Origin: a bacterium
GTDB lineage: Bacteria; Patescibacteriota; Patescibacteriia; JAGPKW01
Assembly (NCBI GenBank): GCA_021780535.1
Contig: JAJXYN010000009.1
Span: forward strand, 224,360 to 288,359
Direction: 5' to 3'
DNA: 64,000 bases
Position 1 is the first letter of the stretch, and every line of letters starts with the position of its first letter. A model generated the notes under the pieces. That model ran no database searches, was not told the DNA's origin, and worked only from the letters and a program-made list of their open reading frames with translations. Both the position numbers and the translations under genes were made by a program. Shown here in pieces: positions 48,823 to 63,637 of the stretch.

Positions 48823-49707
48823 ATGAATTTTATATTTAACGCCTTTTCTAACCTATTCAAACTTATTGAATGGATATTAAAAAAAACATACAAAATCATT
48901 AGGGTTTTAGGATTTTTTGTTTTTACTTTTGTTTTTTTGATTTTTGGATGGATTATATTTTTTCTTATATATAAACTACTTATAGCTAGAATATTAAAAA
49001 ATAAAGAAACTAGAATTGTTAATAAATTTTTTTATGATTGCATAGTATTTTTTATAAAATCTTTTTTAGATACATTTGTGGAAGTGAAAATATGGGGCAA
49101 AAAAAATATATCAAAAGATACTTCAAAGTTATTTATATCAAATCATTTTTCTTCTACTGATCCTTTATTTATGTTTGGTTTTATAAAAGATAGAATCCAT
49201 ATGGTTATTGGACCAGCCTATGATATTCCTGTATTAAAAAATTTTTTAAGAGTACTTGAACAAATAGATGCTACAGAAAATAATAGAAAAAATGTTGTTT
49301 CTAATTCTATAGAATATATAAAAAGAAATGAATCTGTATATATATTTCCAGAAGGAGACTTAAACAACCAACAAGATTTTTTAAATTTTTATCATGGTGC
49401 TGCTAAGATATATATAGAATCTAATGGTATTGCACCAATAATTCCAATAGGGATAGTTGCATCTAAAAAAGATGTTAAAGAATTTAAATTATTTAATATA
49501 AAATCTAAAAAAAATAATAAAACATATAAAAGTTTAAATGTTTTATCTGGTAGATATCTTATTAATATTGGTGAACCTTTAGAATTTCAAGAACTTTTGA
49601 ATAGTGATAAATCTTATGAAGATAAATGTAATCAAATAACTACATTTATAAAAAAATATGTTAAGGAGCTTGTTGATGAAGCTAAATTTGATAAATTTTG
49701 GAATTAA
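48823..49707 (+). CDS. 1-acyl-sn-glycerol-3-phosphate acyltransferase family (PlsC-like)
   Basis: ISNHFSSTDP (H-x4-D) and FPEGDL acyltransferase motifs. N-terminal transmembrane helix. Confidence 0.75.
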   Translation: MNFIFNAFSNLFKLIEWILKKTYKIIRVLGFFVFTFVFLIFGWIIFFLIYKLLIARILKNKETRIVNKFFYDCIVFFIKSFLDTFVEVKIWGKKNISKDTSKLFISNHFSSTDPLFMFGFIKDRIHMVIGPAYDIPVLKNFLRVLEQIDATENNRKNVVSNSIEYIKRNESVYIFPEGDLNNQQDFLNFYHGAAKIYIESNGIAPIIPIGIVASKKDVKEFKLFNIKSKKNNKTYKSLNVLSGRYLINIGEPLEFQELLNSDKSYEDKCNQITTFIKKYVKELVDEAKFDKFWN

Positions 49708-50198
49708 TTCAAATAAATATTTTCTTTATTTGAATCTGATAATATATTTGTTCCCTTTCCATCTGCAGCTAATATTAGGCTTTTATTGAATACTAATTCT
49801 GTTGTTTTTATTTCTTGATTCTTTATTTTAAATTTCATAGTAAATAACTCCCCTTTCCCTACAAATCCATCTGTTGAACCCCCCGCAAAATATATATATC
49901 CTTTAGAATTTGAATACCTTGGGGATTTCATCCAAAGATTAAAGATAGAATTATTATAATATTCTATTCCCACTATTTCCAAATCTTTATTATTAAAATT
50001 TATAGTTGATTGCCCAGCATTAACTATAGAACTTGAATTTACGTTTAACGAAACTTCTATAATTCCTTTTTTTTCATTAATACTTTGATTTAAATAAAAA
50101 TTAGCACTTTCAGCGTTTGCAATATTACAAAATAACAATCCAAACATAAATGGAATAGCTAAAAACAATATATTATTAGATATTGTTATTTTTTTCAT
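49704..50198 (-). CDS. Secreted beta-rich protein, paralog of the N-terminal domain encoded at 50176..51204 (cohesin-like candidate)
   Basis: Signal peptide. LWMKSPRYSNSKGYIYFAGGSTDGF aligns with FWVKSPRIQGNKIFFSGITPGGF of its neighbour. Confidence 0.4.
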   Translation of the reverse strand: MKKITISNNILFLAIPFMFGLLFCNIANAESANFYLNQSINEKKGIIEVSLNVNSSSIVNAGQSTINFNNKDLEIVGIEYYNNSIFNLWMKSPRYSNSKGYIYFAGGSTDGFVGKGELFTMKFKIKNQEIKTTELVFNKSLILAADGKGTNILSDSNKENIYLN

Positions 50199-51204
50199 TT
50201 TTTAATTTATTTCTTCTATTTAAATACGCATTTAGAAGTATTAACACAAAAACTATAAAAAGTAAAGAGATAATTATAACATTATAATTAATAACTGCTT
50301 TTTTTTCATTAATTATAAATGGCCCTATTTTTTCAATTCTATAATTACCAGCTAAATCAACAGCCTTTACTTGTATTTCTTTTGTTAAATCTTGAAATTG
50401 TAATACATAAGGACTTTCTGCTCTTTTAAATGCTTCATCACCTTCTTTAACTTCATAATAATCTATTCCTGAATCTTTATCTTGTGCATTAAATATTATA
50501 GAAAATTTTCCATTACCTATTTTACTATCTTTTATTATTTTTACCGTAAATTCTTCTGGTCTTGTTGTATCTTCTGGATTAACTTTATCTGTGTTGTTAA
50601 TAGAATTATCAATCGGTTTATCTACTACTGGCGTTTGATTATTTACTGGCTGGTTATCAGTATTAGTTGGTGGATTTGCTGTATTATCTTTATTCGTTAC
50701 TGGCTGATTATTATTAGATGAATTGTTATTTGTATTTACAATTTCTAATAATAAATTTTTTATTTTAAATTTATCCTCTGTTGCATTACCATCATTCAAT
50801 AAAAATTTACTATTACTATCTATTTCTATACTTGTGATGCCTGGCTGCTTTGCAACAAATAAAGCAGAGAATATTTTTCCATTTTCTCCATTAAAGCCAC
50901 CTGGTGTTATCCCTGAAAAAAATATTTTATTACCTTGTATTCTTGGACTTTTTACCCAAAAAGCCACAGTAGAGTTACCTTTATAAATTTTTTGTAATTC
51001 TAAAAAATTACTATCAAAAGATAAAGACGATTCAAAAGCATTTATATTAGAGTTTTCTGTATTTATTAAAAAATCTACTCTAAAAACCTCACTAGTTGAA
51101 AGTTTATTACTTGTGGAATTTAAATAAACTGTTGAAGCATTAACATTAAACCCCAACAAAAAAATTGCAAATATAAGTGTTTGTAAAATAATTTTTTTTA
51201 TCAT
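50176..51204 (-). CDS. Two-domain secreted protein with an Asn/Pro/Thr-rich linker and a C-terminal transmembrane anchor (scaffoldin-like candidate)
   Basis: Signal peptide. Domain 1 is homologous to the protein encoded at 49704. NQPVTNKDNTANPPTNTDNQPV linker. C-terminal hydrophobic helix plus basic tail. Confidence 0.4.
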   Translation of the reverse strand: MIKKIILQTLIFAIFLLGFNVNASTVYLNSTSNKLSTSEVFRVDFLINTENSNINAFESSLSFDSNFLELQKIYKGNSTVAFWVKSPRIQGNKIFFSGITPGGFNGENGKIFSALFVAKQPGITSIEIDSNSKFLLNDGNATEDKFKIKNLLLEIVNTNNNSSNNNQPVTNKDNTANPPTNTDNQPVNNQTPVVDKPIDNSINNTDKVNPEDTTRPEEFTVKIIKDSKIGNGKFSIIFNAQDKDSGIDYYEVKEGDEAFKRAESPYVLQFQDLTKEIQVKAVDLAGNYRIEKIGPFIINEKKAVINYNVIIISLLFIVFVLILLNAYLNRRNKLKNEKNNNI

Positions 51205-51212
51205 TTGTTTGA

Positions 51213-52199
51213 TTAATCACCTGTCCAATTATATGCCATTATAGAAAAATCTTTAATATCTATAATACCATCATTATTAAAATCTCCTTCTTTATAGTCA
51301 CTAGCTAACCAATGGAACAAAAGTATTGAAAAATCTATTAAATCAACATTACCATCTCCATTTAAATCACACTTTACCTTATAGTTATTATAATTTTCTG
51401 AATTTTTAATTTTATCATTTGAAATTAATATATTAATATCAATATTTTTACTTGAACCCACAATAGTATCGCTTAATAAATTTTTTGAATATAAAACATA
51501 ATTACCTTCTAATAAATCCTTTGTGTCAAATTGATATATATAATACCCTTGTTTGTTTGTTTTTATGGTATTTAATATTTTTTCTGTATTATCTTTTTTG
51601 TTTTGTAAGAATATTTGAACATCTGATTCTGATAAACCATAGCCATCTATATTAATATTCTCTCCTTTTTTAACTTCATTTACACTAGAGCTGATAGTTG
51701 GGGAAACATAAACATCTGTTACGGATATATAACTTCCCGGATTTAAGCTAACATTGAAATTTACTAAATTTGTTGTTGTTTTATTTTTAGTTTCTGACGT
51801 AACACTAAAAGAATAATCACCATGATAAAAACCATATATACTTTGAGAAAAATTCCCATTATCATCTGATTTAGCATATATTAAAATTTTTCCATCTTTT
51901 AAAATTTTAATTTTTGCATTAGGGATTGTCCTTCCTTGTATAAATATTACAGAGGAAGCAAGATTAACTTTTGAATGAGGCCCTTCATTATCATCTGTTG
52001 GGGATGTACAATCTGGATCTGCTGGATAATCAATTAGACCATCTCCATCATTATCTCTTCCATCCATACATTGTGGTACATATATTATTTTTAATGAAAA
52101 TTGTGGATTTGCTGCAAATGTTTGCTTATTAAAAAACAATGAGATTATAAAAATAATCAATGATGTTGTAAAAAAATTAAAAAATTTTTTATTAACCAT
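51213..52199 (-). CDS. Secreted dockerin-domain protein
   Basis: Two Ca-binding dockerin repeats (DLNGDGNVDLIDFSILL and DFNNDGIIDIKDFSIMA) at the C-terminus. N-terminal DNDGDGLIDYPADPDC. Signal peptide. Confidence 0.65.
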   Translation of the reverse strand: MVNKKFFNFFTTSLIIFIISLFFNKQTFAANPQFSLKIIYVPQCMDGRDNDGDGLIDYPADPDCTSPTDDNEGPHSKVNLASSVIFIQGRTIPNAKIKILKDGKILIYAKSDDNGNFSQSIYGFYHGDYSFSVTSETKNKTTTNLVNFNVSLNPGSYISVTDVYVSPTISSSVNEVKKGENINIDGYGLSESDVQIFLQNKKDNTEKILNTIKTNKQGYYIYQFDTKDLLEGNYVLYSKNLLSDTIVGSSKNIDINILISNDKIKNSENYNNYKVKCDLNGDGNVDLIDFSILLFHWLASDYKEGDFNNDGIIDIKDFSIMAYNWTGD

Positions 52200-52287
52200 C
52201 TTAATTTATACCTTAATTTAAATTAATATTTTATCTGTTAATTATATCATTTTAGATTTTTTATTTATAATAATTATCCACAAAAAT

Positions 52288-52314
52288 AAATATCACGCGA
52301 AGTGCGTGATATTT
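52288..52314 (-). terminator. Terminator of the giant surface protein gene
   Basis: Perfect 11-bp hairpin aaatatcacgc-gaagt-gcgtgatattt, 10 nt after the stop. Confidence 0.55.
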
Positions 52315-52324
52315 ATAAGAAAAA

Positions 52325-55300
52325 TCAATTACCTATTACTGTAAGTGTCATATTTATTGAATACTCTCCACTTCTCTGACTTGCTGGAATTGATTGTAAT
52401 ATTGATACACCCATAATATCCCAATAAGAATTTGTTTGAGTTGCCGATGAAGATGACGCTATAGTAAGTGAATTTTGAGTGCCCTCAATAAAAGATGATG
52501 GACTTGAAAGAACTATACCCGTTGAAGTACCTCCTGGTTTTGGTGTGATAGAGGCAAATGAAGGATCTATAGACATTTGCCCACCTATAGTGTCCGGATC
52601 TGGTCCATCTTTTGCATCTGGTGTGGGGTCATTAAAATCATAACTATCTGTTCCGTCTGACCAAAAAGCAGTTTCTCCATATGATGCTGATAATGATACT
52701 GTCCATAAAGGATTAGCTGTTGAATTTGTTATTCTAATTTTTTGATTATCAAATCCAAATATACCTTGAGAACTTGAACTTGAATAACTAAATGTCCTTG
52801 GGTCCAAACTAAATATTGGATTCGTTATGGAATTTCCATTATTATCCACTATATCTATTGATAAAACACCAGATACTATAGAAACTTCTGGATAATTTGA
52901 GTATGTTTGTATATCTGTACCATCCACATTTACAACTTTAAAACAAAATGTTTTTCCTACCCCTGCATTATTATCAAATAAAGCAAAGTCCCATTTACCA
53001 TATTCTCCTATATTTAAATCACTCATGGAATTTGAAAAATCTCCGATTTCATTATATGTTTGATTTTTAATAGTAGCACCAATTTCATAAGGATCAGAAA
53101 GATTGCTTGTTAAAGCTACTCCACTGGAAACACTTGGATTATCTTTTAGCGCTATTGCCGTTGTCCTTGTTAAAACTGAATATGGGTATTGTGGATTACT
53201 ACATGTACCTGTCCCTTTTTCTGCAAATTGTAATTTAAAAAATCCTTCGTTTTGTAATATTTTGTTTTTAGAAACAGACATTAATAATCTTAATCTAAAA
53301 TCAGACAATGGTTCAATAGATCCTGCTATGTTTTGTTCTGCTATTCCATTTCCAACATCTGACGAATCTGTGTTTTTAAATAGTTTATAAGAGGCTAGAT
53401 TATAATATGGGCTTGTATTAACTGAAACCATAGGATAATTAGTATAATTATCTAATACTTCACCAGTAGATTTAACTAATCTAAAATAATAATTATTACC
53501 TGTAGCGTTTTTAGGGATTAAAGAAAAATCATATTCTCCAACATCATTATTTAATAAATTATTTATATTATTTATTGTTGGATTTTGTTCTGAATAAGAT
53601 TCTTTTTTTGTTGATGTAGATAATAATGTATTACCTATAACACTATCTGAATTAACTAAATTATTATCATAAAATTCCCATTCCTGATTTAAACCAACAC
53701 CATTCCAAGGACCTACTAATGATTTTGAATACTGTAAGACAAATGAAGTAGAGCTTGCTTTAAGTTCTGATAAATTATTTTTTATATTTATTCTTAATCT
53801 TAGTGGATTATTTTTTGAATCAGACAACCCTACTTGATTTTCATTAGCTATTGCCGTTACTGGGTCTATTGCATTTGTATTTGAATACCATCTATAAGAA
53901 TTTTGTGTTAAAGAATTCCCTATAGTTAATTTGGCATAATTTAAATATTCTTCAAAATCAGATCCTTCTGCTCTTATTAATTTAAAATAATATGTTGATT
54001 TTTCTGCGTTTTTTGAATTTAAAGGAAAATCATATTCTCCAGACTGATCTACTTGAATTATGTTTGGATTCAAATCTATTGGGTTTACTTCTGAATACAA
54101 TTCACCAACATTAGAATTAGACAATAACATTTGTGATATTATTGCTGATTGATTTATATTAACCGAATCATAAAATTCCCAGTCTTCTTTAGTCTCAACC
54201 GTATTTAAAGATGTTGTGGGACCGACAGAAACTAATTTAATTAATTTAAAATAATTAAATTTTCCGACCGACAAAATATCCCCACCATTAGATAAAACAT
54301 AAATACCCACATCTTGAACATTAGAAGCATTTGCTATTGTCACGGAATTCATTGCTGAAAAATTTATGCAGTCAATAGAATATGTTGCAGTAAAAACTGT
54401 CCCTTGTTTTTTAATTCTCAAACAATGCGGCCAGGTTGGAGTAACTGTTGGCGAATATAATGTATCTAAATAACCATTATTATTACTATCCCAAGCTGAA
54501 AGAAATGCTGTATTAATATTATCAACATTAACAAAATACCCATTATTTGGTTGTGTTTTTGTAATATCATTTTTAACCATAAGACCCATATTTTCTGAAG
54601 GACTTACATTATCCTGAGAAATACATCTTAAAGTAGCCTCAAAATCTCCATCTATATTATCTTGGTACACTGTTGAATAATCATCTACTGGAGTAACACC
54701 CGTAGCTTCCCATGTATCAACACCTCCAGAATTTATATTTAATGTACCATTTGATTCTGAAAAACTTGTTCCAGAAACTTTATCATTATCAAACGTTTTC
54801 CAATCTGATCTTATTGCCCCACCACTAAAATCATCATAAACTGCATATATATTATTTAAATTTGTTGGTGGGTTTACTGCATTTGGATTACCATAATACA
54901 CATAATAGTCACCTGTTGTTGATGAATTTGTATTTACTGCAATGTCAGACATGAGTCTAAATTGTATATTAGAAGATGTAGAAAACCAATTATCTGCTAT
55001 TCTGTCTAATTCATAATTTTCACCAGTACTTTTTTGAAAAACTACTCTAATATCATCACCACTTGTTTGAGCAATTTGTGTGTTCATTGTGAATGACACC
55101 GTTAGTCCACTTGGCAGTAATGAGTGACTTGTCCCAAAATTTATCTTTTGTCTTTTTGAATAATAATTATTCCACCATTTTGCACCAACACTAGGATTTG
55201 AAACTGTTTTCCATGGACCATTTATACTCATTTTTGAATATTGTAAAATGAAACCTTTTGAAGTAAGTGCTTCATTTTTTGCTTGAACGTTTAATCTTAA

Positions 55301-57235
55301 TCTTGCTAAATCATTTTCATTTATAAAAGATTCTGAATTTTCTTGAGCTAATGAAATTGTTGGTGTTATTAGATCATTGTTTGCATACCATCTGTAATAG
55401 TTTTGAACCAAATGACTTCCAACCAACATTTCTGGATAATTTAAATAGCTACTCAATTCTTTATTATCTGTTGCATTAAATAATCTCAAACAATAATCAC
55501 CATCCAAAATGGTGCTAGAAATTTTAATACTATATTCTAGTTCCGTGTATCCATTGTTTAATAAAGCTATTTGACTACTAGTATTTGTTGTATCCATACC
55601 TCTGCCTGATGTAAATGTGTATGCTTCTGGATTATCAAATATTGGCAACGTTAAATCTTGATCTATATATTGGGTTGAATCTGACATAACAATATTTGAA
55701 GCATCTGGTATATCTTTCCATGTTGTAGTGCTTAAACAACTACCCCCCGTTTTTGACCCATATTGTATTTTTAAACCTTTACCAGCTGTTGTATCTGATT
55801 CTCCAGTATTTGAAATTGCAAATCTAATTCTATAATTTATATTTTTTGTTATTAATGGTGGGTTTTCATTATAATTCGTTGTTAACCAACCATTGTTATC
55901 ATTTAATGCTTTTGTATCATCTCTCCATTTGTATTTATATTGATTCAATGTTGGTTGTGGCGTGTATTGTATATTTTTAAAATTAAGACCTTGAGCCCAT
56001 GTTGCAAAATTATAACTAGTCCCTGTTGGATAATATTCTCTTTGCAATGTGATTGTTGTATTTGCAGAATATCTAGATGAAAAAATACCAGCTGGATAAT
56101 TATTTGTATTATTATTCATACTTGAATAAGCCGTTGACATTCTACAAGTTGTATTTGGATTTGATGTGGTTGTTATAGCAGCAGTTTTAGAACCACCCCC
56201 AGAATTTGTTTTAAATTTATAATCTACTGATAAATTTGGATGGCTAAATACATATATATCAAATGATTTAATTGCTCCTGATATTTGAGAGCCCATGGCT
56301 ACTGTTGTTTCTGATGTATTTTGTGCAACCCCATTTCCTAGCGTTATTATTGTACCGAGTGAACCATTACCAAGTGCTGCTGCTTGTGAATATCCAGATC
56401 CGTACACCCAAGTATTAGCTCTTGTGGCTGAAGATATTGTTGCTGTATTATATGCTGCCGTTGTATTTGAACCACTTGCACCATTTGAACCAGATATAGC
56501 AACTCTTTGCACATTCCAAGCACTTCCCCACTCTATCGCGTAAACAGTACTTGTTGCTAATGACAAAATACCATCATTATTACTATTATATCTTTCCCAA
56601 TTTATCGTATTTGTCCCTGTTGGATAAAGTCTTAGCCAACCTGCATTATAATAACCAGAATTTGCGGCGCTATCTTCTATATTTGTTCCAGAACCTAACC
56701 CCCCACCAAATATAGAAACTTTATTAATATTAGTCCATGGGGTAATGGAAGATGTTGTTCCTGACTGTAATCTAGTTGTTGTATTTGTATATCTTGGAGT
56801 TGATAAATCTAATATATCTAATGTCTTAAATCCATTATTTGTACAATCAACTAAACACTCAACTACTGTCACCACACCAACCCAACTTGATGAACCTACT
56901 GCATATCTTTTTAGTTCTACCGATGTTGTACTTCCTGTTGTTGGTAAACTTTTATTTGCTCCTAATGGTAATTTTGATATTTTTACATAACTGTTTGTGG
57001 GACTTTTTATGACATTCCCACTTTCAGCTCCTCGTATTAGAATAAAATGATCTGGAGATAATGGATTATTTAAAGTCAAATTATATGTAGTGCCAGTAAA
57101 ACCTGTTGTTATATTATATTCTGTAACTCTAAAAACATCACTAGCAGAGACATTACGTGATACAAAAAAACAACCTAAAACAAGGCTTCCTAATAAAACT
57201 TTTTTAAAAATATTCCCCAAACTCCTTGGATTCAT
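52325..57235 (-). CDS. Giant (1636 aa) Thr/Ser/Asn-rich secreted surface protein with four internal repeat modules and a WxL-like C-terminal domain
   Basis: Signal peptide. Repeats sharing NYP…YRWY…RLRL…LQYS. The C-terminal roughly 110 aa are homologous to the C-terminus of the 210-aa protein encoded at 58714 (GQMSIDPS…YWDIMGVSILQSIPA…EYSINMTLTV). Confidence 0.7.
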   Translation of the reverse strand: MNPRSLGNIFKKVLLGSLVLGCFFVSRNVSASDVFRVTEYNITTGFTGTTYNLTLNNPLSPDHFILIRGAESGNVIKSPTNSYVKISKLPLGANKSLPTTGSTTSVELKRYAVGSSSWVGVVTVVECLVDCTNNGFKTLDILDLSTPRYTNTTTRLQSGTTSSITPWTNINKVSIFGGGLGSGTNIEDSAANSGYYNAGWLRLYPTGTNTINWERYNSNNDGILSLATSTVYAIEWGSAWNVQRVAISGSNGASGSNTTAAYNTATISSATRANTWVYGSGYSQAAALGNGSLGTIITLGNGVAQNTSETTVAMGSQISGAIKSFDIYVFSHPNLSVDYKFKTNSGGGSKTAAITTTSNPNTTCRMSTAYSSMNNNTNNYPAGIFSSRYSANTTITLQREYYPTGTSYNFATWAQGLNFKNIQYTPQPTLNQYKYKWRDDTKALNDNNGWLTTNYNENPPLITKNINYRIRFAISNTGESDTTAGKGLKIQYGSKTGGSCLSTTTWKDIPDASNIVMSDSTQYIDQDLTLPIFDNPEAYTFTSGRGMDTTNTSSQIALLNNGYTELEYSIKISSTILDGDYCLRLFNATDNKELSSYLNYPEMLVGSHLVQNYYRWYANNDLITPTISLAQENSESFINENDLARLRLNVQAKNEALTSKGFILQYSKMSINGPWKTVSNPSVGAKWWNNYYSKRQKINFGTSHSLLPSGLTVSFTMNTQIAQTSGDDIRVVFQKSTGENYELDRIADNWFSTSSNIQFRLMSDIAVNTNSSTTGDYYVYYGNPNAVNPPTNLNNIYAVYDDFSGGAIRSDWKTFDNDKVSGTSFSESNGTLNINSGGVDTWEATGVTPVDDYSTVYQDNIDGDFEATLRCISQDNVSPSENMGLMVKNDITKTQPNNGYFVNVDNINTAFLSAWDSNNNGYLDTLYSPTVTPTWPHCLRIKKQGTVFTATYSIDCINFSAMNSVTIANASNVQDVGIYVLSNGGDILSVGKFNYFKLIKLVSVGPTTSLNTVETKEDWEFYDSVNINQSAIISQMLLSNSNVGELYSEVNPIDLNPNIIQVDQSGEYDFPLNSKNAEKSTYYFKLIRAEGSDFEEYLNYAKLTIGNSLTQNSYRWYSNTNAIDPVTAIANENQVGLSDSKNNPLRLRINIKNNLSELKASSTSFVLQYSKSLVGPWNGVGLNQEWEFYDNNLVNSDSVIGNTLLSTSTKKESYSEQNPTINNINNLLNNDVGEYDFSLIPKNATGNNYYFRLVKSTGEVLDNYTNYPMVSVNTSPYYNLASYKLFKNTDSSDVGNGIAEQNIAGSIEPLSDFRLRLLMSVSKNKILQNEGFFKLQFAEKGTGTCSNPQYPYSVLTRTTAIALKDNPSVSSGVALTSNLSDPYEIGATIKNQTYNEIGDFSNSMSDLNIGEYGKWDFALFDNNAGVGKTFCFKVVNVDGTDIQTYSNYPEVSIVSGVLSIDIVDNNGNSITNPIFSLDPRTFSYSSSSSQGIFGFDNQKIRITNSTANPLWTVSLSASYGETAFWSDGTDSYDFNDPTPDAKDGPDPDTIGGQMSIDPSFASITPKPGGTSTGIVLSSPSSFIEGTQNSLTIASSSSATQTNSYWDIMGVSILQSIPASQRSGEYSINMTLTVIGN

Positions 57236-57352
57236 TAAAATATTTTATAATTTATTAATAATATTATAGCATAAATAAATAAATAATATATATACACAAA
57301 AACATAAAAAAGAGACTACTATCTAAAAGTAAACCTCTTTTTTTAATTTAAA

Positions 57353-58597
57353 TTATTTAGTTTTTTTCTTTTTTGTTAATTTCTTTTTTGGTGAAGTTAT
57401 TGATTTAACTTTATTTATCATAGAAATTCTTTTTTTATTATAATCTTCCTCTAGATCATCTGGTACTTTAATTTCGTCTTTTGAATCTACCATATATGGC
57501 GCTTTTATTTTGTTAACACTTGCTAACAATTTCCAATTAACTTCATATTTCTCTGCTAATACTTTTATATTTGTAGCTCTTGCAACTGTATGTTTTTTCC
57601 ATGTTCCTATCCAATTTTGTCTTTTCTTCCATATAGACAAAAGATAGATATTAAATGTTATAAATAATAATATAATAATTTCAAACATTAAACCTTTTGC
57701 TGTTGGAAATGAAAAAAATGATATTTCTTTTTCCGATTCTAATATTTTTAATTTGCTTTCATCTTTTAGATCTCCTTTAATGTTTGGATTATATTTTGCC
57801 ACTAATCTAGCTGTATAAAATCCTCCCCAAAAAGGTTTTGGTAATTCAAAATTCCAAACCGATGTTTCTCCTCTCAATACAATAAATTCTCCACCTACTG
57901 TTTTATGAGTTATTCCTAATATATTTTTTACGATTACATTTACATCTGTATTCACTGAAACATTACCACTATTTTTGATTGATGAATTAAACACAAAAGA
58001 TCCATCTTGTTTATTTGATATTTCAAATTTACCCAAAGATATTTTTTTAATCAAATCACCTGGAATTGTTATAGAAACCCTTACCCCGGTTCTTATAGAT
58101 AATTGTATTCCTGATTTTTTATTATTTTTATCAACTGTATCATCTTTTTTTTCTTGAATTAAAAAACATCCATCATGTTCACCAGAATCTGTTTTGGCTG
58201 GAATAGAAATTGTAAAAGGTATAATTTCATTTGTTCCGGGATCTAATTCTACTTCATTTTTATCTAACTTAATCCAAGATCCTACTTCTATCTTGTTTTC
58301 ACCAAATTGCTTACAAGCAAAGCCACCATCTGTTGATGATACGGAATCAGCTGCATATACTGAAAATGTTTTTTTAACTTTTGTGTTATTAATCACCATT
58401 AGACCATCTCTTTTACTTGAACCTAAATCTATATCATATGAAAAAGCGCTATCACTTTTTCTAACTGTTCCATTTTCTAAATCTGCTGGCCTTAATCCAA
58501 AACCACCATATTCAAAGGCTTTTACTGTTGGTATTAAAAAACTAGAAACAAGAAAAACCAATAAAAACGACGATGTTAAATACCTTTTATTTATCAT
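57353..58597 (-). CDS. Cell-surface protein with a C-terminal transmembrane anchor (CscA/DUF916-like candidate) followed by a LysM-like tail
   Basis: Signal peptide, beta-rich ectodomain, transmembrane helix (IIILLFITFNIYLLSIW), then HTVARATNIKVLAEKYEVNWKLLASVNKIKAPYMVDSKDEIKVP (LysM pattern) and a poly-Lys end. Confidence 0.45.
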   Translation of the reverse strand: MINKRYLTSSFLLVFLVSSFLIPTVKAFEYGGFGLRPADLENGTVRKSDSAFSYDIDLGSSKRDGLMVINNTKVKKTFSVYAADSVSSTDGGFACKQFGENKIEVGSWIKLDKNEVELDPGTNEIIPFTISIPAKTDSGEHDGCFLIQEKKDDTVDKNNKKSGIQLSIRTGVRVSITIPGDLIKKISLGKFEISNKQDGSFVFNSSIKNSGNVSVNTDVNVIVKNILGITHKTVGGEFIVLRGETSVWNFELPKPFWGGFYTARLVAKYNPNIKGDLKDESKLKILESEKEISFFSFPTAKGLMFEIIILLFITFNIYLLSIWKKRQNWIGTWKKHTVARATNIKVLAEKYEVNWKLLASVNKIKAPYMVDSKDEIKVPDDLEEDYNKKRISMINKVKSITSPKKKLTKKKKTK

Positions 58598-58713
58598 AAT
58601 TTAATTTAATTACTAAATAATAATATAAGAAATATTGATTATAATTATATCATGAATATATTTTTTAGAAAACAAAAAAGAATGGTTTAAACACCATTCT
58701 TTTTAATAAATAA

Positions 58714-59346
58714 TTATTTAGCAACAACTGAAATTGTCATTGGTAAAGAATAATCTGCTGCTGTTTGCATAGCTGGGATTGTTTGTGTTAATGCAACACC
58801 TTGCAACGTCCAATCTCCAATTTTAGCAGAAGTAGCATCAGCATCTAATAATGTAATAGAAGCTACAGTTGAAGAAAAATTACTTGCTGAACCTTTTACA
58901 ACGCCTGTATTTGCAGCTGTTGATTTACCATGAGTCAATACTCCAACTGAAGGATCAATTGCTAATTGACCACTAGTAGCTACATCATTTTTATAATCAA
59001 AATTAACAGTATTACCAGCGTCTTGCCATTTTGCAGCAGTTGCAGCTATTGATGTTGTCCAACCATTAGGAGCAGCATCAGGGTTTGATACTAAAATTTG
59101 CTGTGTTGGAGAACCTAAAGTAGCTGTAGAAGTTTCAGATACCATGCTTGCAGTAACAGGAGCAAAGGCAATAGCAGGAGCAGCTATCGTAGCATAAGTA
59201 CCATCCACAATATCAACCGCTAAAGTACCTGGATTAATTTTTAAAGTAAATTGAGCCATATTAGAAGCAAGAACAACTCCAGCAACTAATACCATTCCTG
59301 TCATAGCTAAAGCAGGAATACTTATTTTTCTAAATGATTTTGACAT
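58714..59346 (-). CDS. WxL-domain-like small surface protein (CscB-like)
   Basis: Signal peptide. Ala/Thr-rich. The C-terminus carries WTTSI and DWTLQGVALTQTIPA…DYSLPMTISVV, a two-motif WxL-type domain shared with the giant protein. Confidence 0.5.
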   Translation of the reverse strand: MSKSFRKISIPALAMTGMVLVAGVVLASNMAQFTLKINPGTLAVDIVDGTYATIAAPAIAFAPVTASMVSETSTATLGSPTQQILVSNPDAAPNGWTTSIAATAAKWQDAGNTVNFDYKNDVATSGQLAIDPSVGVLTHGKSTAANTGVVKGSASNFSSTVASITLLDADATSAKIGDWTLQGVALTQTIPAMQTAADYSLPMTISVVAK

Positions 59347-59514
59347 TTTTGTTTTGTTTAAAAACTTAATTAAATAAAATATATTTTGGTTTGGTTTATA
59401 TATTAGTTATATTATAACACAATTATTAATATATGCACTTACTTTCCACCTGTGGATAAGTTGTTGGTGTATAAAAAATAACCAACCAGCATATTACTGA
59501 TTGGCTAGACTTCG

Positions 59515-60603: not shown

Positions 60604-62376
60604 TTATTTTTTAATAGAATATTGCTTTCCGAATAATAAATCATTGTATATAATTGAGAAATTTGAAAGTTGGGATGTTGATAAAATAGAATTAAAAGAA
60701 TTTGATAATTTTACATACTCTGGTGTTGTTTTATCCACATATAATGGTCTAATATTATTTAATTCTTCTATATTAAATAAATCTAACAATGTATCTTTTG
60801 TTTCTACTCCTATTTTATTTAATATTTGTTCCCCAAATCTAAACATGTTTACATGCCCAACATTTTCTATTTTATTTTTATTGATGAATATTAATGGCGT
60901 TGAATGAAGAGTTAATTCATTTAATGTGTTTGTTTTTTTATAAACTTCTTGATTCATTCCTAAAAATGGTAAATGATCACCTGTTATTATTATTATAGAA
61001 TTTTGATCATTTTTTCTTATTTTATCAACAAATTCTGAAATTTCTTTTGTTGAATAATAAATGGAATTTGAATAATTATTTATCCAATCATTGTTTATAT
61101 TATTTGTTATAATGTGTGGCCTTTTGCTATTTAATGAATATGGTATATGTGTTGACAATGTCATATAATAATTAAATTTTGGTTTACTATTATTATTATT
61201 TTTATTAGCTAGATCATATGCTTGATTTAAAAATGATTGATCTGATAATTTACCATCATTAAGATCGTCCATATTAAAATCATTTAAAGAAAAATAATTT
61301 TTAAATCCTATTTTTTTATAAGCATTTGTTCTATTAAAAAAATTCGCATAATCTGGGTGAAATGCATTTGTTTCGTACCCTAATTCCGACAATATGTTTG
61401 GAAGGCATGCTAAATTATTTTTTAACTCAGTCTGGAATACTACACTATTATTTAAAACTGGAATGCCACACAATAATTCAAACTCTGGATCAGCTGTCTT
61501 ACCTTCAAACGTTGGGCTTACTAAAAAATTATCTTTGGATTGATTTCTTAAATCTCTAAAATCTTTATAAAAAGGATCTTGAGAATAACTTGAATTATTT
61601 AATAATTTCGGATCCCACAATGACTCCACTAAAATAAAATAAATATTTGGAAGTGGCTTTAAAGAAGAAGCAATTGTAGATGAAAATGGATAAGAAGATA
61701 AAATTTTATTTTTACCAATAGAATTTAACGCATCCTCTACTGTTTGTTGTTTTGGAATTTCTTTTTTATTATCTGATCTTATGTATTGGTCTATAAAATA
61801 CATAAACGGTCCTTCGTGTTTATAATTTTCTTGTTGATTCCAAAATAAATATGACACATCTGCTTTATTTATTATAGAATCATACTGCTTTGAAAATATA
61901 TTTAAAGAAATTATAAACAACATTAATATTATAAATAATACCAATCCTGATTTTCTAAATTTAAAATTTAAAATTAATACGAGTACTATTATAGATAAAG
62001 CAATAATTATAAGTACTACAAATATTGGGTTAATCATCCATATAGCTATTATCGCTTCTTTTGCTGAAAATACATCATCCATTATTATTGGTGCTCCAAA
62101 AAAAGCAGTTTTTATTGAGTCTGATACTTGTATAGTAAGTAATATTATAAATTGTATTATTAAAAATATATTTATTTTTTTAGAAAATAAAAATAATATA
62201 TAGCTGATAAATACAAAAAAAATAATATCTGAGATTATATATATTGAACTTAATAAATTTAATTTAAAAAAAATAATATTTATTAAATTTATTATTATAT
62301 AAAAAAATATTCCAGAGATTATTGGTGTAAAATAGAATATTTTTGTTTTAATTATTTCTAAATTTATTTTATTCAT
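60604..62376 (-). CDS. LtaS-like sulfatase-family membrane phosphotransferase (lipoteichoic acid synthase family)
   Basis: 5 N-terminal transmembrane helices and an extracellular alkaline-phosphatase-superfamily domain (ILVESLWDP, FEGKTADPEFELLCGIP, GDHLPF). Confidence 0.75.
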   Translation of the reverse strand: MNKINLEIIKTKIFYFTPIISGIFFYIIINLINIIFFKLNLLSSIYIISDIIFFVFISYILFLFSKKINIFLIIQFIILLTIQVSDSIKTAFFGAPIIMDDVFSAKEAIIAIWMINPIFVVLIIIALSIIVLVLILNFKFRKSGLVLFIILMLFIISLNIFSKQYDSIINKADVSYLFWNQQENYKHEGPFMYFIDQYIRSDNKKEIPKQQTVEDALNSIGKNKILSSYPFSSTIASSLKPLPNIYFILVESLWDPKLLNNSSYSQDPFYKDFRDLRNQSKDNFLVSPTFEGKTADPEFELLCGIPVLNNSVVFQTELKNNLACLPNILSELGYETNAFHPDYANFFNRTNAYKKIGFKNYFSLNDFNMDDLNDGKLSDQSFLNQAYDLANKNNNNSKPKFNYYMTLSTHIPYSLNSKRPHIITNNINNDWINNYSNSIYYSTKEISEFVDKIRKNDQNSIIIITGDHLPFLGMNQEVYKKTNTLNELTLHSTPLIFINKNKIENVGHVNMFRFGEQILNKIGVETKDTLLDLFNIEELNNIRPLYVDKTTPEYVKLSNSFNSILSTSQLSNFSIIYNDLLFGKQYSIKK

Positions 62377-62486: not shown

Positions 62487-63014
62487 TTATCCTGCTATTA
62501 CTGTAATTTGTTTTATAACAAAGTCTGTAATTGCATAGGCCGCAGCTATAATAGCTATACCAATCATTCCTGATGTCATAAGCTTTCTTGCTGAACCAAT
62601 TTTTGTTGGATCTCCTTTTGAAATCATCCATTGTATTCCACCCCAAATAATGAAAATAAGAGCTACAGTTCCAGATATTCCAAGTATTACTTTAATAACA
62701 TTTCCTATTATTACTGGAACAGATGTTGTTGTATTTAATCCACCAGAACCAGCTAATGATGCTGCCGAATTAGTAGAACCTGATGTATTTAAGTTGTCAT
62801 ATTTAGAAACAGCTGAACAAGTAGCGGCACCAGTATCAGTAGCGCATGTACAAGAAAAACCCGTACCAGAAGTTACACAAGTTGTTGTACTACCAGATCC
62901 ACAATTACCCGCGCTTGATCCACATGTTACCGTATCTGCAAACACAGATGATGTTGACATTACTAGCACTGAAAATATCGCAATAAATATTGAGCTTAAT
63001 AAAAATTTTTTCAT
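62487..63014 (-). CDS. Small secreted/membrane protein with VirB2/TrbC-like topology, copy A (Cys/Thr/Gly-rich variable ectodomain)
   Basis: Signal peptide. Variable region CGSSAGNCGSGSTTTCVTSG…. The conserved C-terminal two-helix core VPVIIGNVIKVILGISGTVALIFIIWGGIQWMISKGDPTKIGSARKLMTSGMIGIAIIAAAYAITDFV is identical to copy B. Confidence 0.45.
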   Translation of the reverse strand: MKKFLLSSIFIAIFSVLVMSTSSVFADTVTCGSSAGNCGSGSTTTCVTSGTGFSCTCATDTGAATCSAVSKYDNLNTSGSTNSAASLAGSGGLNTTTSVPVIIGNVIKVILGISGTVALIFIIWGGIQWMISKGDPTKIGSARKLMTSGMIGIAIIAAAYAITDFVIKQITVIAG

Positions 63015-63298
63015 TTTGATTAGTTAAAAAATTATTTAATTTTTGTTATTTTTATATTTTATCACAAAAAAATAAAATATGGAAATATTGACACATGGGG
63101 ATATGTTAACTACCCTGCTATTACTGTAATTTGTTTTATAACAAAGTCTGTAATTGCATAGGCCGCAGCTATAATAGCTATACCAATCATTCCTGATGTC
63201 ATAAGCTTTCTTGCTGAACCAATTTTTGTTGGATCTCCTTTTGAAATCATCCATTGTATTCCACCCCAAATAATGAAAATAAGAGCTACAGTTCCAGA
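62490..63298 (-). repeat. Direct repeat: the 3' roughly 185 nt of the two tandem pilin-like genes are nucleotide-identical (62490-62675 and 63113-63298)
   Basis: Read directly: ctgctattactgtaatttgttttataacaaagtctg…gagctacagttccaga is the same in both copies. Upstream parts diverge completely. Confidence 0.8.
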
Positions 63299-63637
63299 CA
63301 CACCAAGTATTACTTTTATTACTGAGCCTATTATTGCTGGAACAGAAGTACTAGAAAGACCTGCTTGATCACTAACTGTTTCTAGTCCTGCTCCAAATGG
63401 CTTTTTGCAAGAACAACTTCCAAGAGCACCATCTCTTGAACACATTGTACCACCAGTACAATCATCACCACATAAACTTCCCTTATCTGAAGGAATTGTT
63501 CCCGTTTGGTCAATTACGCAACCACCCGCCGCATAAGCACATGCTGCACAGACTGATGCATTAACTTTATTATTACTTACGAAAATAATAATAATTGTAA
63601 AAACACTCACAAACAATAACTTAAATATATTTTTCAT
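63110..63637 (-). CDS. Small secreted/membrane protein with VirB2/TrbC-like topology, copy B
   Basis: Signal peptide. Different Cys-rich ectodomain (CAACAYAAGGCVIDQTG…CGDDCTGGTMCSRDGALGSCSCKK). Identical C-terminal core. Confidence 0.45.
   Translation of the reverse strand: MKNIFKLLFVSVFTIIIIFVSNNKVNASVCAACAYAAGGCVIDQTGTIPSDKGSLCGDDCTGGTMCSRDGALGSCSCKKPFGAGLETVSDQAGLSSTSVPAIIGSVIKVILGVSGTVALIFIIWGGIQWMISKGDPTKIGSARKLMTSGMIGIAIIAAAYAITDFVIKQITVIAG

Follow-up and report, generated by a model that had tools for sequence, protein, structure and literature searches.

A candidate WxL-type surface cluster in Patescibacteria with a LysM-extended WxLIP homolog and co-conserved cohesin and dockerin genes

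A 64,000-nucleotide stretch of a Patescibacteria contig (JAJXYN010000009.1, positions 224,360 to 288,359, assembly GCA_021780535.1), referred to here as the window, encodes a gene cluster centered on a giant protein of 1636 amino acids (aa). With a probability of roughly 0.7, the cluster is the counterpart in Patescibacteria, or the candidate phyla radiation (CPR), of the WxL (Csc) surface clusters of Firmicutes, and its products would form a non-covalently assembled complex. A reading of the window from its letters alone (the sequence-only reading) had proposed a Csc/WxL-like surface cluster of three co-directional genes. All three genes were recovered at identical coordinates in the list of open reading frames (ORFs), on the minus strand:

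Positions 58714 to 59346, minus strand: small WxL-like protein, 210 aa (ORF; signal peptide and one all-beta domain of ~180 aa)
Positions 57353 to 58597, minus strand: WxLIP/CscA homolog, 414 aa (ORF; signal peptide, PGBD [DUF916], Ig-like [HBD-like] domain, transmembrane [TM] helix, LysM, Lys-rich tail)
Positions 52325 to 57235, minus strand: giant large-type WxL-like protein, 1636 aa (ORF)

The gaps between the three genes are 116 to 117 bp. The layout matches the published minimal WxL cluster, which consists of a small domain-only protein, a WxLIP, and a large protein whose C terminus is formed by the domain of the small one (PMC9772566, PMC10599100). This match and the WxLIP homology described below support the assignment to Csc/WxL-like clusters. 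One small and one large WxL-type protein stand beside a WxLIP here only if the divergent domain that the two share is accepted as WxL-like. The window is very AT-rich (~22 to 31% G+C) and matches a 232-kb contig in the metagenome-assembled genome (MAG) GCA_027355865.1.

The middle protein is a homolog of CscA/WxLIP, and more than a look-alike, because its DUF916 match exceeds the Pfam gathering score and because its family aligns with the Firmicutes family over 328 columns. PF06030 (WxLIP_PGBD/DUF916) matched residues 41 to 147 with 30.7 bits (gathering score, 27.3). Profile comparison of 116 CPR homologs with 57 Firmicutes WxLIP proteins gave a probability of 98.4% (hhalign, E 7.6e-15). The alignment spans the signal peptide, both Ig-like domains (PGBD and HBD), and the TM helix. 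The 57 canonical DUF916-DUF3324-TM proteins were taken from 68 Firmicutes loci that were located by the published motif NQIDKxxxYFDLK (PMC10599100). These findings bear out the earlier suggestion that the middle gene corresponds to CscA in position and topology. The domains were placed as follows:

Positions 58157 to 58477, minus strand: PGBD/DUF916 domain, residues 41 to 147 (best stretch of the Pfam match)
Positions 57698 to 58057, minus strand: second Ig-like domain, residues ~181 to 300 (hhalign columns to the Firmicutes HBD/DUF3324 region)
Positions 57617 to 57688, minus strand: TM helix, residues ~304 to 327 (hydrophobicity scan; aligned to the Firmicutes TM helix)
Positions 57461 to 57559, minus strand: LysM, residues 347 to 379, C-terminal to the TM helix (E 0.013, weak in the window protein; present across the family)

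Pfam DUF3324 had no match in the 414-aa protein. The single hydrophobic helix agrees with the C-terminal TM anchor of the sequence-only reading, except that it does not lie at the extreme C terminus: a basic, Lys-rich tail of ~87 aa that bears the LysM follows it (57353 to 57616). The search with the middle protein recovered 187 homologs at E ≤ 0.001, and PF01476 LysM is annotated in most of the 120 that were listed. In the family consensus the LysM begins ~12 residues past the TM helix. It is kept in this position across the CPR WxLIP family and is absent from the Firmicutes and actinobacterial homologs examined. The LysM is predicted to be cytoplasmic because a strongly basic stretch (RKRKKWIKK) follows the helix, in line with the positive-inside rule.

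A C-terminal domain is common to the small protein and the giant. Residues 40 to 210 of the small protein align with residues 1456 to 1636 of the giant (31% identity, 183 columns, BLASTP E 7e-20). The sharing was therefore real as previously proposed, but the length is ~180 aa rather than ~110 aa, which is essentially the whole mature small protein. A hidden Markov model (HMM) of the CPR C-terminal domain matched giant residues 1438 to 1635 (E 1.7e-71).

Positions 52328 to 52870, minus strand: C-terminal WxL-like domain of the giant, residues 1456 to 1636 (BLASTP to the small protein, E 7e-20; HMM match)

One of the two W-x-L/I-type motifs that had been proposed is a strict W-x-[LI] (W179-T-L in the small protein, W-D-I in the giant); the second conserved Trp sits instead in W-T-[TV]-S-[IL]. 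The small protein has 44 close CPR homologs, none with a Pfam annotation. A profile search of 1.84 billion representatives, in which family counts are clusters at 50% identity, found 721 proteins with the shared domain at E ≤ 0.001, 412 of them at E ≤ 1e-30. In 143 of the best 150 representatives, the domain runs to the last residue; 57 of the 150 are small proteins (~210 to 260 aa) and 93 are large (300 to 1764 aa). A dichotomy of small and large proteins is a defining trait of WxL proteins (PMC9772566). Matches to the shared domain or the middle protein that bear an organism name all come from Patescibacteria lineages (Kerfeldbacteria, Nomurabacteria, Dojkabacteria, Parcubacteria, Gracilibacteria, and Microgenomates), with the sole exception of a partial homolog of the middle protein (P0215) from a MAG labeled "archaeon." A Camelysin/TasA-like subunit of the SipW type was also considered for the shared domain, prompted by an N-terminal N-x-G-T-L and one Peptidase_M73 match (E 0.057) among 35 members, and was rejected as unsupported.

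Sequences that bridge the CPR domain and canonical WxL domains came from actinobacterial plasmids. A tblastn search of plasmids with the middle protein found DUF916 loci (E 2e-13 to 1e-4) on Streptomyces pADI95-16a, Clavibacter pCCh, Cellulosimicrobium pCPRO01, and an Arthrobacter plasmid. In the Streptomyces locus, a large GH43-ricin protein (L001, 3828 to 5861) carries a C-terminal domain that passes PF13731, the Pfam WxL family (29.1 bits versus 25), and the same motifs are present in small proteins annotated as "hypothetical" from Clavibacter, Cellulosimicrobium, and Arthrobacter.

Several lines of profile evidence indicate that the shared domain is a remote, very divergent homolog of WxL that is connected to it through these actinobacterial intermediates. 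The profile of 151 CPR sequences aligned with the actinobacterial WxL profile over 142 collinear columns (hhalign, 87.3%, E 3.8e-6, score 43.0). With secondary structure derived from AlphaFold2 (AF2) models, the probability rose to 96.5% and the score to 57.6 (42.6 + 15.0 for secondary structure). The actinobacterial profile in turn aligned with the WxL profile of 75 Firmicutes sequences at 96 to 97% (E 2.9e-9 and 6e-10), and the CPR profile aligned with a merged Firmicutes and actinobacterial profile at E 3.7e-5. In these alignments, CPR G-T-L-x-V-D corresponds to canonical G-x-L-S-I-D, CPR V-S-N-P-D-A-A-x-N-G-W-T-V-S-L to canonical V-T-D-x-R-G-x-x-x-G-W-x-L-x-V, CPR D-W-T-L to the canonical non-motif G-T-W, and CPR I-P-A-x-Q…Y-x-I-x-M-x-L-S-I to canonical V-P…Y-x-x-x-L-x-W-x-L. 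The W-T-L at residues 179 to 181 of the small protein aligns with the Trp of the canonical non-motif G-T-W.

Control comparisons scored well below the real pair. Reversed templates scored 10 to 14, column shuffles averaged 11 (maximum, 15), and shuffles of 8-column blocks without secondary structure averaged 14 to 15 (maximum, 20). Block-shuffled templates with secondary structure averaged 15.4 (maximum, 23.2), compared with 57.6 for the real pair. Real beta-sandwich decoys, for which WxLIP profiles were used, scored 15.6 to 20.9. In a second alignment mode the real pair scored 29 to 33, versus 10 to 20 for reversed or shuffled templates. A first, shallow CPR alignment compared with single actinobacterial sequences was insignificant (hhalign E 0.1 to 0.3). 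HMM-versus-sequence searches between CPR and Firmicutes or actinobacterial domains placed the right proteins near the top with weak E values (0.0016 to 1.8). The bridging actinobacterial profile is shallow, because a homology search seeded with the Streptomyces WxL domain returned close Streptomyces relatives only.

Structure models allowed an indirect comparison of the folds. Queried with the small protein or its profile, with the middle protein, or with a canonical WxL protein of Enterococcus, the PDB sequences returned nothing useful and no solved WxL structure. The AF2 model of the CPR small protein is all-beta (pLDDT 83), as is that of the Streptomyces WxL domain (pLDDT 69). When the models were compared by strand order, all ten Streptomyces strands could be matched, without change of order, to strands of the CPR model, which adds four short strands within a central insertion of ~30 extra residues.

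Two side observations concern WxL domains in general. Profiles of the domains extracted from small and large Firmicutes WxL proteins (loci L003 to L070) align with each other at 99.5% (E 1e-22, 144 columns), which sits uneasily with the published statement that small and large WxL domains have completely different structures (PMC9772566). Some actinobacterial small proteins, such as that of Clavibacter (L002, 5095 to 5721), have no Pfam WxL match though the domain is clearly present, and WxL-type clusters therefore look under-annotated outside Firmicutes. The actinobacterial plasmid clusters with a small hypothetical protein, a DUF916 protein, and a LamG/GH43 large protein lie at L072 7064 to 12219, L002 5095 to 6909, L001 3828 to 6876, and L071 7161 to 8876.

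Ahead of its C-terminal domain, the giant protein consists of repeat modules, a ConA-like region, and a distinct N-terminal domain:

Residues 1 to 32: signal peptide
Positions 55955 to 57139, minus strand: N-terminal domain, residues 33 to 427 (no Pfam match)
Positions 55442 to 55954, minus strand: repeat module 1, residues 428 to 598, ~170 aa, beta-rich (starts YKYKWRDD, ends YLNYPEMLV)
Residues 599 to ~1098: second module, ConA-like jelly-roll, and a weak DUF2341-like stretch
Positions 54269 to 54763, minus strand: ConA-like jelly-roll region, residues 825 to 989 (Pfam DUF1349, subthreshold)
Positions 53423 to 53941, minus strand: repeat module 3, residues 1099 to 1271 (fragment BLAST and HMM)
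Positions 52871 to 53422, minus strand: repeat module 4, residues 1272 to 1455 (fragment BLAST and HMM)

The N-terminal domain recurs in just two further members of the family (P0141 and P0111, 34 to 40% identity). The sequence-only reading described at least four tandem modules of roughly 150 aa. The repeats are genuine, and the module measures ~170 aa. Self-BLAST of the giant returned the diagonal only; BLAST of fragments against the masked remainder gave E values down to 7e-22, and an HMM built from two module copies found more copies (i-E 1e-15, 7e-11, and 4e-4). The second module is either complete or split by an insertion between residues 599 and ~1098. At least 20 further CPR large proteins contain the module in the phase of residues 1099 to 1271, frequently just ahead of the C-terminal domain. 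Pfam searches of eight segments of the giant produced only weak DUF2341 and subthreshold DUF1349 matches. The DUF1349 match at residues 825 to 989 (E 9.6e-6) points to the previously suggested ConA/LamG-like region but lends it weak support, with 25.8 bits against a cutoff of 32.4. Other CPR large proteins carry Laminin_G_3, H_lectin, PATR, DUF2341, fn3, and Ig-like domains, which are adhesin and lectin types.

Comparison with other CPR loci extends the cluster beyond the three genes first reported. The order of small gene, WxLIP-LysM gene, and large gene is found in four other CPR loci, with the C-terminal HMM matches verified: a Kerfeldbacteria genome (L079), an unclassified Patescibacteria MAG (L081), a Dojkabacteria MAG (L083), and a Nomurabacteria-type contig (L084). 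The same order of small, DUF916, and large genes also occurs on the Cellulosimicrobium plasmid. Three further genes lie downstream of the giant gene:

Positions 51213 to 52199, minus strand: fourth gene, 328 aa, secreted Ig (Big_6-like) protein that ends in a dockerin-like pair of Ca-binding repeats (weak Pfam matches and synteny)
Positions 50176 to 51204, minus strand: fifth gene, 342 aa, cohesin-like N-terminal domain, OmpL47-type beta domain, and C-terminal TM anchor (orthologs)
Positions 49704 to 50198, minus strand: sixth gene, 164 aa, small cohesin-domain protein (Pfam Cohesin)

The 328-aa gene has orthologs in the same position in L083, L084, and L081 (E 1.5e-35, 5e-34, and 2e-17). The window protein itself reaches only 16.5 bits for Dockerin_1 (gathering score, 22.9) and matches Big_6 weakly, and its L083 and L084 orthologs have both Big_6 and Dockerin_1 above the gathering scores (Dockerin_1, 25.3 and 23.2 bits). 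The 342-aa protein, with its C-terminal TM helix, has orthologs in L084 and L083 (E 2e-46 and 7e-41), matches NCBIfam barrel_OmpL47 weakly, and is paralogous to relatives of the 164-aa cohesin protein. The latter passes Pfam Cohesin with 25.4 bits (gathering score, 24.1) and matches the N termini of the 573- to 584-aa products of the sixth genes in L083 and L084 (E 4e-12 and 5e-11). Synteny of this dockerin/cohesin trio with the WxL-like trio thus holds in L083 and L084 and partly in L081. The conserved unit is therefore six genes (49704 to 59346) rather than three, because the three downstream genes are co-conserved. A literature search found no paper describing a cohesin-dockerin pair coupled to a WxL-type cluster. 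As a side observation, residues 43 to 66 of the 328-aa protein form an acidic double-disulfide repeat, CMDGRDNDGDGLIDYPADPDC (NCBIfam NF033662, E 1.6e-5, below cutoff), and a similar stretch gives a weak BLAST match to the Kerfeldbacteria WxLIP homolog (L079, 10784 to 12124, E 0.001).

A consensus scan placed three terminator-like hairpins in and around the cluster, all of which are pattern matches only:

Positions 58675 to 58704, minus strand: directly 3' of the small gene (12-bp stem, T-rich tail)
Positions 52286 to 52316, minus strand: directly 3' of the giant gene (13-bp stem followed by TTTTGT)
Positions 59479 to 59507, minus strand: 3' of the upstream 343-aa gene, at the upstream cluster boundary

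The hairpin at 58675 to 58704 starts 10 nucleotides past the stop of the small gene, within the cluster. It is possible that it acts as an attenuator, which would fit an excess of the small subunit over the WxLIP homolog and the giant. The upstream 343-aa gene was rejected as a cluster member; it resembles none of the upstream genes at the other loci, and the terminator-like hairpin intervenes. No ORF with an LPXTG and hydrophobic tail, as in the CscD-type proteins that are frequent but not essential in WxL clusters, was found within the whole window. Farther upstream on the minus strand, positions 62487 to 63014 and 63110 to 63637 encode two tandem 175-aa T4SS_pilin/TrbC-like paralogs (type IV secretion pilin) with near-identical C-terminal ~80 aa and differing, Cys-rich N-terminal parts. 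Between the cluster and these pilin genes lies a gene (60604 to 62376, minus strand) whose 590-aa product is a polytopic membrane protein that contains a Sulfatase-family domain (E 1.4e-33), the domain layout of LtaS-type lipoteichoic acid synthases.

A number of results weigh against a WxL assignment. Pfam WxL (PF13731) had no match in the small protein or the giant (E ≤ 0.1), in 35 small homologs (E ≤ 1), or in 63 large homologs (E ≤ 0.01). The strict dual Trp-x-Leu signature is absent: the Trp of motif 1 is retained (W96 of the small protein) but its +2 position is T or V, and the motif 2 Trp aligns with I205 (L or I in the CPR family) and its Leu with V or I. Direct comparison of the CPR domain with Firmicutes WxL reached only E 7e-4 to 1e-3 and fell to decoy level (E 0.02 to 0.07) when only small or only large Firmicutes domains were used. 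The actinobacterial AF2 model is of moderate quality, and the models were compared by strand order, not by superposition. The surface-anchor model also gives no account of a LysM that is predicted to face the cytoplasm, and Pfam detected no catalytic or ligand-defined domain in the giant. The Pfam searches that the sequence-only reading had proposed thus had a mixed outcome, with DUF916 above its gathering score and neither WxL nor DUF3324 matched. The combination that it had named as contrary to its proposal, no match to WxL or DUF916 together with a shared domain resembling a different known anchor, was not found, since DUF916 does match. The lack of a Pfam WxL match in ~100 family members, the missing dual motif, and the decoy-level scores against Firmicutes subsets are what would be expected if the shared domain were a CPR-specific anchor that is analogous, not homologous, to WxL and was recruited independently as a DUF916 partner; a surface complex would then stand and only the WxL label would be wrong. 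We consider this quite unlikely, because the full-length collinear alignment with actinobacterial WxL lies well over shuffles and decoys, independent AF2 models have the same strand order, and the small/large C-terminal architecture and gene order are those of true WxL clusters.

Two other explanations accept the gene set but assign it a different role. The small protein might be the major subunit of a donor-strand-complemented fiber, with the giant as a tip adhesin bearing the same pilin-like domain and the DUF916 protein as membrane chaperone or base, in a pilus-like structure rather than a wall-bound platform. The evidence supports such a fiber weakly, and we regard it as highly improbable; the features of chaperone-usher or donor-strand pilins (an incomplete Ig fold, a donor strand, and a dedicated chaperone plus usher or sortase) were not found in the cluster. 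According to the original Csc hypothesis for Lactobacillus plantarum, the cluster could instead serve mainly in polysaccharide harvesting, not host attachment, with the giant binding or presenting environmental glycans and the cohesin and dockerin genes forming a mini-cellulosome. Actinobacterial counterparts that carry GH43, ricin, and LamG on the large protein beside sugar transporters speak for this role, as do the relation of the ConA-like region to DUF1349/GH43_C2-type folds and the co-conservation of the cohesin and dockerin genes. However, Pfam found no glycoside hydrolase or other catalytic domain, but only lectin or adhesin modules, in the giant or in 63 CPR large proteins, and no sugar transporter is adjacent within the window. 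A mainly harvesting role is thus unlikely, and we favor the WxL-type surface complex.

The manner in which a WxL-type surface complex might work can be sketched by analogy with the Firmicutes systems. The small protein, the WxLIP homolog, and the giant would all be exported via Sec signal peptides. The WxLIP homolog would be anchored in the membrane of the producing cell by its one TM helix and display its PGBD and HBD-like Ig domains outside, and the shared WxL-like beta-domain of the small protein and the giant would attach non-covalently both to the wall and to the PGBD of the WxLIP homolog. For the Firmicutes system, the AlphaFold2 prediction is that a hairpin strand of WxLIP completes the WxL sandwich; the docking work there is largely in silico (PMC10599100). 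Held at the surface by its C terminus, the giant would project its approximately four 170-aa beta modules, ConA-like module, and unique N-terminal domain outward, where they may bind a glycan or the surface of a partner (host) cell. A carbohydrate- or host-binding function is suggested by the domain content, and a role in attachment to partner cells would be attractive for episymbiotic CPR bacteria. The downstream dockerin protein and the membrane-anchored cohesin proteins probably add a second non-covalent docking layer. It is a long shot that the six-gene module is a lineage-wide host attachment organelle of episymbiotic Patescibacteria, in which modular giants set the host range and the TM-LysM end engages the peptidoglycan of the partner cell or couples the complex to wall synthesis from inside. 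If so, action of the TM-LysM end on partner peptidoglycan or on wall synthesis would be a mode unknown for WxL systems.

WxL clusters in Bacilli are well described, and some actinobacterial members are covered by Pfam. WxL clusters have been treated largely as a feature of Lactobacillales and Bacillales (PMC9772566, PMC10599100), and a literature search found no paper that links WxL or DUF916 with Patescibacteria. New here are a divergent WxL-superfamily domain invisible to Pfam, a WxLIP extended by LysM, and the coupling to cohesin-dockerin genes; the position of the LysM behind the TM helix and this coupling are two unexplained twists. The large family has the same organization across CPR lineages, and the actinobacterial loci form a sequence bridge to it, which suggests that the pairing of WxL and WxLIP is an ancient monoderm surface-display system. 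For the attachment of CPR bacteria to partner cells by means other than type IV pili, the cluster, with its variable lectin- and adhesin-type giants, is a testable candidate that is widespread and so far unannotated in these ultrasmall bacteria.

Among known systems, the cluster resembles the WxL/Csc clusters of Firmicutes, which include the Enterococcus Swp-Duf-Lwp loci, Lactiplantibacillus cscA-D, Listeria clusters, and the Enterococcus faecalis elr operon. Both kinds of cluster pair a domain-only small protein and a DUF916-DUF3324-TM protein with a large protein that carries the domain of the small one at its very end, behind adhesin-type modules (PMC9772566, PMC10599100). The small gene immediately precedes the WxLIP gene, an arrangement also seen in 26 of the 34 Firmicutes loci in which both were caught. 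In contrast to the systems of Bacilli, the host lineage is Patescibacteria. The CPR domain is missed by PF13731, with an aliphatic residue for the Trp of motif 2 and Thr or Val for the Leu of motif 1, and has ~30 extra mid-domain residues that form short strands. Unlike its Firmicutes counterpart, the CPR WxLIP bears a LysM past the TM helix, and the large protein has 1636 aa compared with the 500 to 1000 aa reported. In place of an LPXTG/CscD protein, which the window lacks, the dockerin/cohesin trio is co-conserved. This trio resembles cellulosome-type cohesin-dockerin scaffolds, with a cohesin protein, a membrane-anchored cohesin-like paralog, and an Ig protein with a putative dockerin directly downstream of the giant gene; unlike cellulosome-type assemblies, it has no dockerin-bearing enzymes and is coupled to a WxL-type trio. 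The actinobacterial loci differ from the CPR clusters in that their large proteins carry GH43 and ricin catalytic and lectin modules among sugar utilization genes, their DUF916 proteins have no LysM, and their domain retains motif 1 as D-x-R-G...G-W-x-L and scores above the Pfam gathering threshold. However, they share with CPR the order of small protein, DUF916 protein, and LamG-type large protein and a C-terminal strand, Y-x-x-T-[LI]-T-L-[ST]-L, without the second Trp, and no closer relatives of the middle protein or of the shared domain were detected outside CPR.

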